From IMG/VR virus record IMGVR_UViG_2698536620_000007: DNA of 43,864 nt, one strand, 5' to 3'. Below the pieces are notes generated by a model. That model ran no database searches and was not told where the DNA came from. It worked only from the letters and a program-made list of their open reading frames with translations. The DNA is from a virus (lineage: Duplodnaviria; Heunggongvirae; Uroviricota; Caudoviricetes). Each line of letters begins with the position of its first letter. The first letter of the stretch is position 1. A program made the position numbers and the translations under genes. Shown here in pieces: positions 38,239 to 39,194 of the stretch.

Positions 38239-38255
38239 GATCGTTTTTGTCGATC
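38239..38255. promoter_or_regulatory. Tandem GATC (Dam) sites in the com/mom upstream region
   Basis: TCGATCG...TCGATCGA, two GATC 13 bp apart, about 50-65 bp upstream of the com ATG. Confidence 0.4.
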
Positions 38256-38302
38256 GATTGAGTGATAAAGATATCAACAACAAAGCAGGAGGTTATGCGG
38301 CC

Positions 38303-38503
38303 ATGTATCGAAACATACGGTGCCGACATTGTAACAAGCTACTGGCACGAGCCAGCTTCAGTTATCTGGAAGTTAAATGTCCGCGCTGTAAAACCCTCAA
38401 TCAAATCACATCTCAGAGCGCCACAGAGCACCCCACATACACAAGGAAATCCTGTCGTGGGGAACAGAAAGCAAGTTACATCCCGTATCATCAGCACGCC
38501 TGA
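38303..38503 (+). CDS. com: Com-like zinc-finger translational regulator
   Basis: 66 aa [14 protein letters not shown]...KCPRCK with Cys7/Cys10/Cys26/Cys29 spacing like Mu Com; RBS GGAGG 10 nt upstream. Confidence 0.6.
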
Positions 38504-39194
38504 ACTTATTCACTATAACGACAATATCGTCGGTTATGGCTCCCGTGAGTTACGGGTTGAGACAATAAGTTGCTGGCTGGCCCGGCTGGTCGTCGTCAAT
38601 AAACATTACAGCCATCGTTTCGTAAATAATTCCTACCTTCATCTGGGCATATTTTCAGAACGGGAGCTGGTTGGCGTAATGCAATGGGGTTATGCCCTTA
38701 ATCCAAACAATGGTGCACGCGTCGTAACTGGCACGCAGAACCGCGAATATATGGAGCTTAACCGGTTATGGCTGCATGACTGTATGCCGAGAAACTCCGA
38801 ATCAAGGGCAATCAGTTACGCGCTCAAACTAATCAGACAACTTTATCCGCAGGTGCAGTGGGTTCAGTCGTTTGCAGATGAGCGTTGTGGCTGTCTTGGT
38901 GTCGTGTACCAGGCAAGCAATTTTGATTATGTAGGCAGTCATGAAACAACATTCTATGAACTTGATGGCGAGTGGTATCACGAGATTTGCAAGAATGCAA
39001 TCAAACGAGGAGGACAGCGAGGTGAACATCTGCGGGCTAATATCGACAGAGCCAGTGTTCATAAATTCCGTCAGTTTCGTTACATCCGGTTTCTGGACAA
39101 GAGAGCCAGAAAACGCCTTAACACAAAGCTATTCAAAGTCCAGCCTTACCCAAAACCACAAACAGTTAAAACTGGTTTGAAAGAGAGTGAATGA
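38457..39194 (+). CDS. Mom-like DNA modification protein (start uncertain; the frame is open from 38262)
   Basis: Large ORF overlapping and following com at the right end of a Mu-like genome. Assignment rests on synteny; candidate starts are GTG 38262, ATG 38295 and GTG 38457. Confidence 0.45.

Follow-up and report, generated by a model that had tools for sequence, protein, structure and literature searches.

The question raised by positions 38,239 to 39,194 of a 43,864-nucleotide stretch of viral DNA (IMG/VR record IMGVR_UViG_2698536620_000007; the whole stretch is referred to as the window) is whether a small zinc-finger gene, two nearby GATC sites, and a long overlapping reading frame make up a com-mom module like that of phage Mu, and whether the enzyme at its end is longer than Mu Mom or different from it. 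The sequence facts on which the original prediction was built are all present. GATC occurs at 38239-38242 and 38252-38255 (a third site lies at 38170-38173) ahead of the com reading frame, and a 310-codon open reading frame (38262-39194) runs across com with an in-frame ATG at 38295, 8 nt upstream of the com ATG at 38303 and in a different frame from it, and an in-frame GTG at 38457. We conclude, with a probability of about 0.9, that the module is an ordinary Mu-type com-mom operon at the right end of a Mu-like Escherichia coli prophage, most likely working as in Mu. The operon is already known, and its RefSeq annotation is correct. Features are collected in Table 1.

Table 1. Features of the com-mom region (window coordinates)
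Feature	Position	Strand	Description
Inverted repeat AATCGATCG-TTTTTGT-CGATCGATT	38235..38259	.	Perfect, 9 bp; contains both GATC (Dam) sites
Upstream part of 310-codon ORF	38262..38456	+	mom frame across com; chance-open, non-coding in that frame
com Shine-Dalgarno AGGAGG	38287..38292	+	Read from sequence; kept in clade
com	38303..38503	+	66-aa zinc-ribbon protein, putative Mu-type mom translational activator; Pfam PF10122, E 7.5e-13
Small RNA hairpin GA-GCGC-CACAGA-GCAC	38416..38431	+	Putative Com site; covariation across 32 com-mom lineages
Translation-inhibitory hairpin	38431..38462	+	Predicted, RNAfold -12.6 to -14.3 kcal/mol
mom	38457..39194	+	245 aa, GTG start; Pfam PF25680 E 1.6e-77; PDB 8bv8 E 2.4e-123
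Prophage right-end segment	39195..39322	.	Sequence common to other insertions stops at 39322

Both proteins are recognized by their family profiles with scores well over the cut-offs. Com scored 48.2 bits against PF10122 (Zn_ribbon_Com; cut-off, 22.9), its cysteines C7, C10, C27, and C30 (CxxC...CxxC) align with those of Mu Com, and it is 45% identical to that protein. Mom scored 260.2 bits against PF25680 (cut-off, 27.1) over profile positions 1 to 202 of 202, is 75 to 78% identical to Mu Mom over the full length, and aligns without gaps to the Mu Mom crystal structure (8bv8_A, residues 4 to 232). The proposed identity as com and mom is thus borne out by the Pfam matches and by the similarity to the Mu proteins and to 8bv8, and alignment to PF25680 and to this GNAT-fold structure likewise places the enzyme in the Mom family. 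A structure search for Com found no solved Com structure, only weak matches to the eS27 zinc ribbon.

At the DNA level, com-mom of the window is about 72% identical to com-mom from Mu, D108, and SfMu (Mu, NC_000929 35768-36602), where the gene order is the same and no further operon separates the pair from the right end. Among complete E. coli genomes, 233 of 5,426 carry the module with 95 to 100% DNA identity to the window, and RefSeq E. coli genomes name identical proteins Com and Mom at the same coordinates. The names used are "Com family..." for the first and "tRNA(Gly)-dependent adenine aminoacyltransferase Mom", "protein mom", or "Mom family adenine methylcarbamoylation protein" for the second; the entry at the com coordinates is WP_014334043.1. 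Mu-like prophages of E. coli (WP_014334043.1/WP_000528246.1 and relatives at about 95%) are identical to the window or 95 to 97% identical in DNA and use the same start codons; that of O157:H7 is among those at about 97%. For wider comparison, 80 viral and 57 genomic loci were used, each encoding a relative of Mom, and distinct com-mom loci numbered 64.

The two genes overlap by 47 nt (38457-38503), com running over the start of mom. The same is true of Mu, where mom is read in a frame one base downstream from that of com; the relative frame of the two genes is the same in nearly all of the 64 loci. A programmed frameshift fusing Com to Mom was considered and set aside, since the C-terminal tail of Com is poorly constrained and a slippery site is lacking.

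A Mu-like prophage of full length lies in the window. Its nucleotide similarity to Mu is colinear, and its gene content includes gemA, lysozyme, protease I, gin, and one Mor/C-type activator gene (10219-10641; 40% identical to Mu C), the single copy of this gene being a difference from Mu. In three genomes with different insertion sites, divergence begins at 39323. The shared sequence therefore ends 128 nt past the mom stop (115 nt from the end of mom to the right end in Mu), which puts com-mom last among the transcription units at this end, the position it has in Mu. Mu gin abuts com, whereas in the window about 3.4 kb of lambdoid cargo lies between gin and com. The E. coli prophage relatives differ from the window upstream of about 38190 to 38208, and some carriers of com-mom are heavily deleted prophages (e.g., strain DLI.5a).

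The promoter layout is the sole non-routine aspect of this operon. In Mu, a C-activator box, TTAT-N6-ATAA, lies upstream of mom. Between the last GATC and com, the window contains neither this box nor the ACCACA -35 element nor T6-TAAGAT, and the distance from the last GATC to the com ATG is 51 nt versus 78 nt in Mu, which places the repeat 27 nt closer. A sigma-70 promoter scan of 37950-39450 returned nothing on the plus strand. Two candidates picked by eye were set aside, one (AAAGAT or GATAAA at 38264-38272) as weak and variable within the clade of the window and the other (ATGACA-N17-TATCAA at 38194-38222) as weak and unconvincing. The 16 nt expected to hold the -10 element vary among close relatives. 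The same short layout is found in L028, L029, L030, and L086, and the first three of these have a good -10 (TATACT or TATAGT) 7 to 9 nt past the last GATC, where the window has only GATAAAGAT. An activator box common to the upstream regions of lys, I, P, and com was also sought in the window, and the search yielded no motif for com. C-runs (CCCCCTT) are common to the candidate late promoters, and the C-rich motifs upstream of lys and I are missing upstream of com.

Tentatively, and with considerable doubt, these features may be read as rewired control of mom in the lineage of the window and in L028, L029, L030, and L086, in which methylation would act through occlusion of RNA polymerase and not through a block on activator binding. 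Such a reading starts from the loss of the Mu-type C-activator box and from the single Mor/C-type activator gene; the GATC palindrome, 51 to 54 nt from the com start, may then overlap the -35 element or the spacer.

An operon that is intact in its coding sequence but silent or decaying, a relic left when a Mu-type activator-dependent promoter was lost, would also account for the missing C box, -35 element, and T-run, for the hypervariable putative -10 region, for the failure to find any promoter-like site, and for the heavily deleted state of some carriers. We regard this as improbable. The genes are under purifying selection, with synonymous to non-synonymous changes at 12:2 in com and, among codon differences within the clade, about 4:1 in mom, and conservation extends to the GATC repeat and to the Shine-Dalgarno sequences of both genes. 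A good -10 accompanies the short layout in L028, L029, and L030, and the window, for its part, has a full-length prophage. The Mu mom promoter is itself very weak by design (PMC3378877). Its elements include a poor -35, a spacer of 19 bp, a T6 run, and TAAGAT as the -10.

The two GATC sites form the cores of an inverted repeat, AATCGATCG-N7-CGATCGATT, which is homologous to GATC sites 2 and 3 of Mu (AATCGATC-N9-GATCGATT), and the resemblance to the Dam/OxyR-controlled mom region of Mu that had been suggested is therefore one of homology. Mu has the GATC-bearing repeat AATCGATC...GATCGATT upstream of com as well; its first site reads GTATC in the window, leaving two homologous sites versus three in Mu. 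Slightly upstream of the repeat, "atcaattaa" corresponds to the end of Mu gin, its final codons and stop. A core, AATCGATC-N(5-11)-GATCGATT, occurs once, just upstream of com, at nearly every locus of the window and Mu clades (39 loci). Of 10 upstream haplotypes of the clade, 9 have the repeat unchanged, and 10 of the 16 positions that follow it vary; the variant L023 has one arm mutated. Most of the com-mom lineages of enterobacterial type that were compared have two to three GATC sites, spaced about 13 to 31 nt, ahead of com, and such clusters are absent upstream of com from the com-mom loci of Pseudomonas, Desulfovibrio, and Rhodospirillales. Together, the conserved repeat and the restriction of GATC clusters to the enterobacterial type support a conserved Dam-related operator, and the repeat is presumed to be methylation sensitive by analogy with Mu.

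The GATC sites might instead have no regulatory role and simply have been inherited, for example as what is left of the gin-com junction or within a palindrome that serves another purpose. A spacing of 13 nt between two GATC sites is statistically ordinary (three other pairs in the window are at least as close), the repeat is terminator-like on the minus strand, and only two of the three Mu sites are kept, at an altered distance to com. A scan with the OxyR consensus (ATAGnTnnnAnCTAT-N7-ATAGnTnnnAnCTAT) gave a best score of 13/20 in the window, the same as in Mu, which about 14% of shuffles reach. Against this, the repeat is nearly invariant amid variable flanks, GATC is otherwise depleted in the window (125 observed versus 176 expected from shuffles), and clusters precede com in most enterobacterial-type lineages and in none of the distant phyla. 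An absence of any role is accordingly quite unlikely in our view.

Unmethylated GATC sites of Mu bind OxyR, at a position upstream of the activator site, and transcription is repressed. In the Dam/OxyR switches of Mu mom and of E. coli agn43/flu, as in the window, clustered GATC sites sit in a short palindromic operator beside the promoter region. Unlike in the Mu switch, the repeat in the window would lie over, beside, or downstream of the core promoter, depending on the transcription start.

Downstream of the putative operator, the RNA around the mom start has the organization of the Mu translational switch. A small hairpin, putatively the Com site, pairs 38418-38421 with 38428-38431 around a 6-nt loop (38422-38427) of the form C-N3-GA. 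Across 32 lineages, which span Enterobacterales, Pseudomonas, Desulfovibrio, and Rhodospirillales, 96% of cells are paired, a percentage biased upward by the prefiltering of the alignment for at least three of the four pairs. In each of the four pairs, both partners have undergone changes, and the covariation score was reached by 0 of 500 shuffles and not nearly approached by slid registers. RNAfold alone does not predict this hairpin in the window. Its second pair is a C.A mismatch (C38419/A38430), in which the window differs from Mu and which also occurs in L028 and L029; haplotype L007 has a U:A pair instead, regained through C38419T, a change that is silent in com. Should control of mom have been rewired as considered above, the C.A-weakened hairpin might further tune the translational gate.

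The second, predicted hairpin is closed by a clamp in which CCCCAC (38431-38436) pairs with GUGGGG (38457-38462). Its inner helix lies over the mom Shine-Dalgarno sequence AAGGA (38443-38447), and the GUG start lies within its 3' arm, so the ribosome-binding site and start of mom are both contained in a predicted hairpin directly 3' of the putative Com site. The arrangement is that of Mu, where the GTG start is inside a CCCAC...GUGGG hairpin and a 4-bp hairpin stands just before it. Ten enterobacterial lineages, Mu among them, have the CCCAC...GUGGG clamp; its loop is about 11 to 20 nt long (20 nt in the window versus 11 nt in Mu) and in every case includes a Shine-Dalgarno sequence. A search of 38000-39400 against Rfam brought no family near threshold. 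From the position of the small hairpin and from the literature on Mu, Com probably binds at 38418-38431.

The enzyme itself had been thought possibly different from Mu Mom, and this is not supported. The chemistry of Mom was solved in 2026 (PMC13219725), and mutation of W48, H58, Y59, R111, S124, D149, R151, Y159, or W181 (numbered on the 241-aa form of Mu Mom) abolishes or severely reduces activity of the Mu enzyme (Silva et al. 2026, PMC13219725). None of the nine varies among 14 aligned lineages, and in the protein of the window, one of those aligned, they are W40, H50, Y51, R103, S116, D141, R143, Y151, and W173. The sequence alignment to 8bv8_A covers both the GNAT core and the Mom-specific HTH-like insertion (about residues 175 to 209 in Mu). 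By analogy with Mu, Mom of the window would be a GNAT-fold, Gly-tRNA(Gly)-dependent adenine N6 aminoacyltransferase, with N6-carbamoylmethyl-adenine, derived from Gly-tRNA(Gly), as the expected product. A modification unlike that of Mu Mom could be imagined from the 22 to 25% of residues that differ and from a 12-residue C-terminal tail that Mu lacks, but the invariance of the activity-critical residues, the end-to-end ungapped alignment to the crystallized protein with its insertion, and the reported activity of more distant metagenomic homologues in the same assay (PMC13219725) make it very improbable.

Homologues of mom without com were seen in lambdoid phages (e.g., IMG/VR L067, L073, and L080), with Mom 66 to 70% identical and the same residues invariant. 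These loci have no com, GATC cluster, or Com hairpin, and mom lies between a Q-like antiterminator gene and the holin gene, adjoining a phage-borne tRNA-Gly(UCC) gene. [quoted passage not shown]

The original prediction left two possibilities for the long frame, an N-terminal extension of the enzyme dual-coded with com or an internal start near 38457, and comparison of relatives decides for the second. In 8 of 12 haplotypes of the clade and in O157:H7, the mom frame is closed by TAA at 38373-38375, through the change T38374A, which turns com codon GTT into GTA and leaves valine in place; relatives with this stop are 95 to 97% identical to the window, and most of the E. coli prophage relatives carry it and lack the long open frame. 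The frame is open across com only in window-identical IMG/VR copies and in L020 and L030, and the single base T38374 holds open the 65-codon stretch before GTG 38457. Across the 12 haplotypes, the 14 variant alleles within 38303-38456 comprise 12 synonymous and 2 non-synonymous changes in the com frame versus 2 synonymous, 11 non-synonymous, and 1 stop in the mom frame. Synonymous-site comparison, which had been proposed for the overlap, thus finds constraint in com and none in the mom-frame extension. From 38457 on, in the true overlap, the picture turns, with 6 of 8 changes non-synonymous in the com frame and 5 synonymous in the mom frame. These counts on either side of 38457 indicate that selection acts on com alone up to 38456 and on mom from 38457.

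Between the stop of the relatives (38373-38375) and the conserved Mom region, GTG 38457 is the only start codon. It aligns with a GTG of Mu ("IVGKEK"), and the upstream ATG from which the 241-aa Mu Mom is annotated aligns with GCG in the window. In Mu, a TGA immediately before that ATG shuts the frame. Mu Mom made from the GTG is active, and Karambelkar et al. use the corresponding 231-aa numbering (PMC7261163); a delta-10 form was crystallized and is active (PMC13219725). RefSeq places the mom start at the equivalent of 38457. On the alignment with Mu, the RefSeq start, and the switch of selection, GTG 38457 is the start of Mom, and the 65-codon open stretch before it is a chance feature with no second coding layer. 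The same alignment suggests that the 241-aa RefSeq start of Mu Mom is itself about 10 codons too long.

A Mom with an extension of about 54 to 65 residues from 38262 or 38295 has the open frame and the ATG 38295 of the window, of the identical IMG/VR copies, and (for the frame) of L020 and L030 to speak for it, but in view of the stop and the lack of constraint in close relatives, of the TGA in Mu, of an ATG that lies just 2 nt from AGGAGG (10 nt for the com ATG) and is missing outside the clade, of a Pfam Mom domain that starts only at residue 96 of the 310-codon frame, and of the chance of a few per cent with which an open stretch of 65 codons is expected, we give it next to no credence.

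With the operon taken as an ordinary Mu-type com-mom unit, its working would be as follows. A short transcript presumably starts just 5' of com, gated, as in Mu, by methylation of the GATC sites in 38235-38259, and com (38303-38503) would be translated from its strong ribosome-binding site. On its own, mom would be untranslatable, its Shine-Dalgarno sequence (38443-38447) and GUG 38457 being locked in the hairpin at 38431-38462. Com, as a zinc-ribbon RNA-binding protein, would bind the abutting hairpin at 38418-38431, the lock would open, and Mom (245 aa) would be made. If the enzyme acts as in Mu, it would move glycine from Gly-tRNA(Gly) to the N6 of adenine in double-stranded DNA, and the adduct would rearrange to N6-carbamoylmethyl-adenine, by which phage DNA would be shielded from restriction enzymes.

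The discovery value of the locus is small, as it holds a textbook anti-restriction system of which this copy is correctly annotated in RefSeq. For annotation, the 310-codon frame should stay unannotated and Mom should begin at GTG 38457. For the family, the RNA switch of com-mom is conserved and covaries and has no Rfam entry, and the promoter of the E. coli prophage differs from that of Mu, so that results on C and OxyR obtained in Mu are not simply transferable to it.

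Six of the fetched loci encode com-less Mom homologues that adjoin a tRNA-Gly(UCC) gene (see table). At one of them, L067, the gene order is Q-like antiterminator, tRNA-Gly, mom, and holin, and the tRNA is therefore phage-borne, occupying the "moron" slot in the late part of a lambdoid phage genome. [quoted passage not shown] 2026, PMC13219725), and the text of that paper makes no mention of tRNA genes neighboring mom. At other com-less mom loci, unrelated tRNAs were found on the opposite strand; these are probably att sites.

Features of the window, of phage Mu, and of fetched loci encoding Mom relatives (L numbers)
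Feature	Sequence	Position	Strand	Remark
tRNA-Gly(UCC)	L065	633-706	same as mom	adjoins com-less mom
tRNA-Gly(UCC)	L067	1310-1384	same as mom	adjoins com-less mom
tRNA-Gly(UCC)	L073	1306-1379	same as mom	adjoins com-less mom
tRNA-Gly(UCC)	L076	1218-1291	same as mom	adjoins com-less mom
tRNA-Gly(UCC)	L080	1306-1379	same as mom	adjoins com-less mom
tRNA-Gly(UCC)	L098	2157-2231	same as mom	adjoins com-less mom
Tandem hairpins (examples)	L130, L132, L125, L109, L107, L033			between Com zinc ribbon and mom start
Region of the 241-aa Mom annotation start	Mu (L084, NC_000929)	35877-35906		ATG within upstream hairpin
Mor/C-family activator	window	10219-10641		between gemA and lysozyme gene
gin	window	34256-34828		
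SASA-esterase/DUF6645 protein	window	34914-36968		cargo
DUF1378	window	37101-37295		cargo
DUF826	window	37331-37585		cargo
ORF	window	37753-38013 or 38046	minus	cargo
Terminator-like site	window	38235-38269	minus	GATC repeat then TGATTTATTT
Variable 16 nt	window	within 38260-38285		3' of GATC repeat
IS66-family transposase, C-terminal fragment	window	39413-39871		outside prophage
Prophage tail-fibre N-terminal domain ORF	window	39925-41097		outside prophage

Two sequences are conserved 5' of com-less mom genes (L049-L082; ~140 nt upstream), namely, a GC-rich hairpin-like segment (e.g., gggtggcccgg...ccgggcc) and a leader, ggtcacgagtacacc...ttattggagta, which together may constitute a different cis-regulatory element. 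Where com is present, the GA-NNNC-loop-GNNN-C hairpin occurs once in the window and once in Mu, but com-mom loci of Pseudomonas and Desulfovibrio, and some enterobacterial ones, have two tandem copies of it ~11 nt apart; an Rfam search returned no family covering this element. The ATG of the 241-aa Mom annotation of Mu falls within this conserved hairpin (gaAUGCcugcgaGCAU) and is not kept elsewhere among the lineages, unlike the GTG located ten codons 3' of it, which is conserved. Mom in the RefSeq Mu annotation is probably 10 codons too long.

Among copies otherwise ~95% identical, the 16 nt following the GATC repeat (the 9-bp inverted repeat upstream of com) are a hot spot of variation, and the CAACAA tract after them carries two extra CAA units in one locus (L020). 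Read on the minus strand, the repeat and adjoining sequence score as intrinsic terminator-like (9 pairs, 4 G-C), with no convergent gene evident. GATC is depleted across the whole window (125 sites observed versus 176 ± 11 expected from dinucleotide-preserving shuffles), and the interval 35500-39700 contains just four of them.

The window prophage has a single activator gene of the Mor/C family (40% identity to Mu C, 28% to Mu Mor), in contrast to the two of Mu (mor and C). It also differs from Mu, in which gin abuts com, by ~3.4 kb of intervening cargo (34914-38046); the same gin-cargo-com arrangement is found in O157:H7, and lambdoid Stx phages typically carry the DUF1378/DUF826 set in their late region. 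Beyond the right end of the prophage (39322), the region 39323-41097 holds an IS66-family transposase fragment and a tail-fibre ORF, which suggests that the Mu-like element inserted in other mobile DNA.
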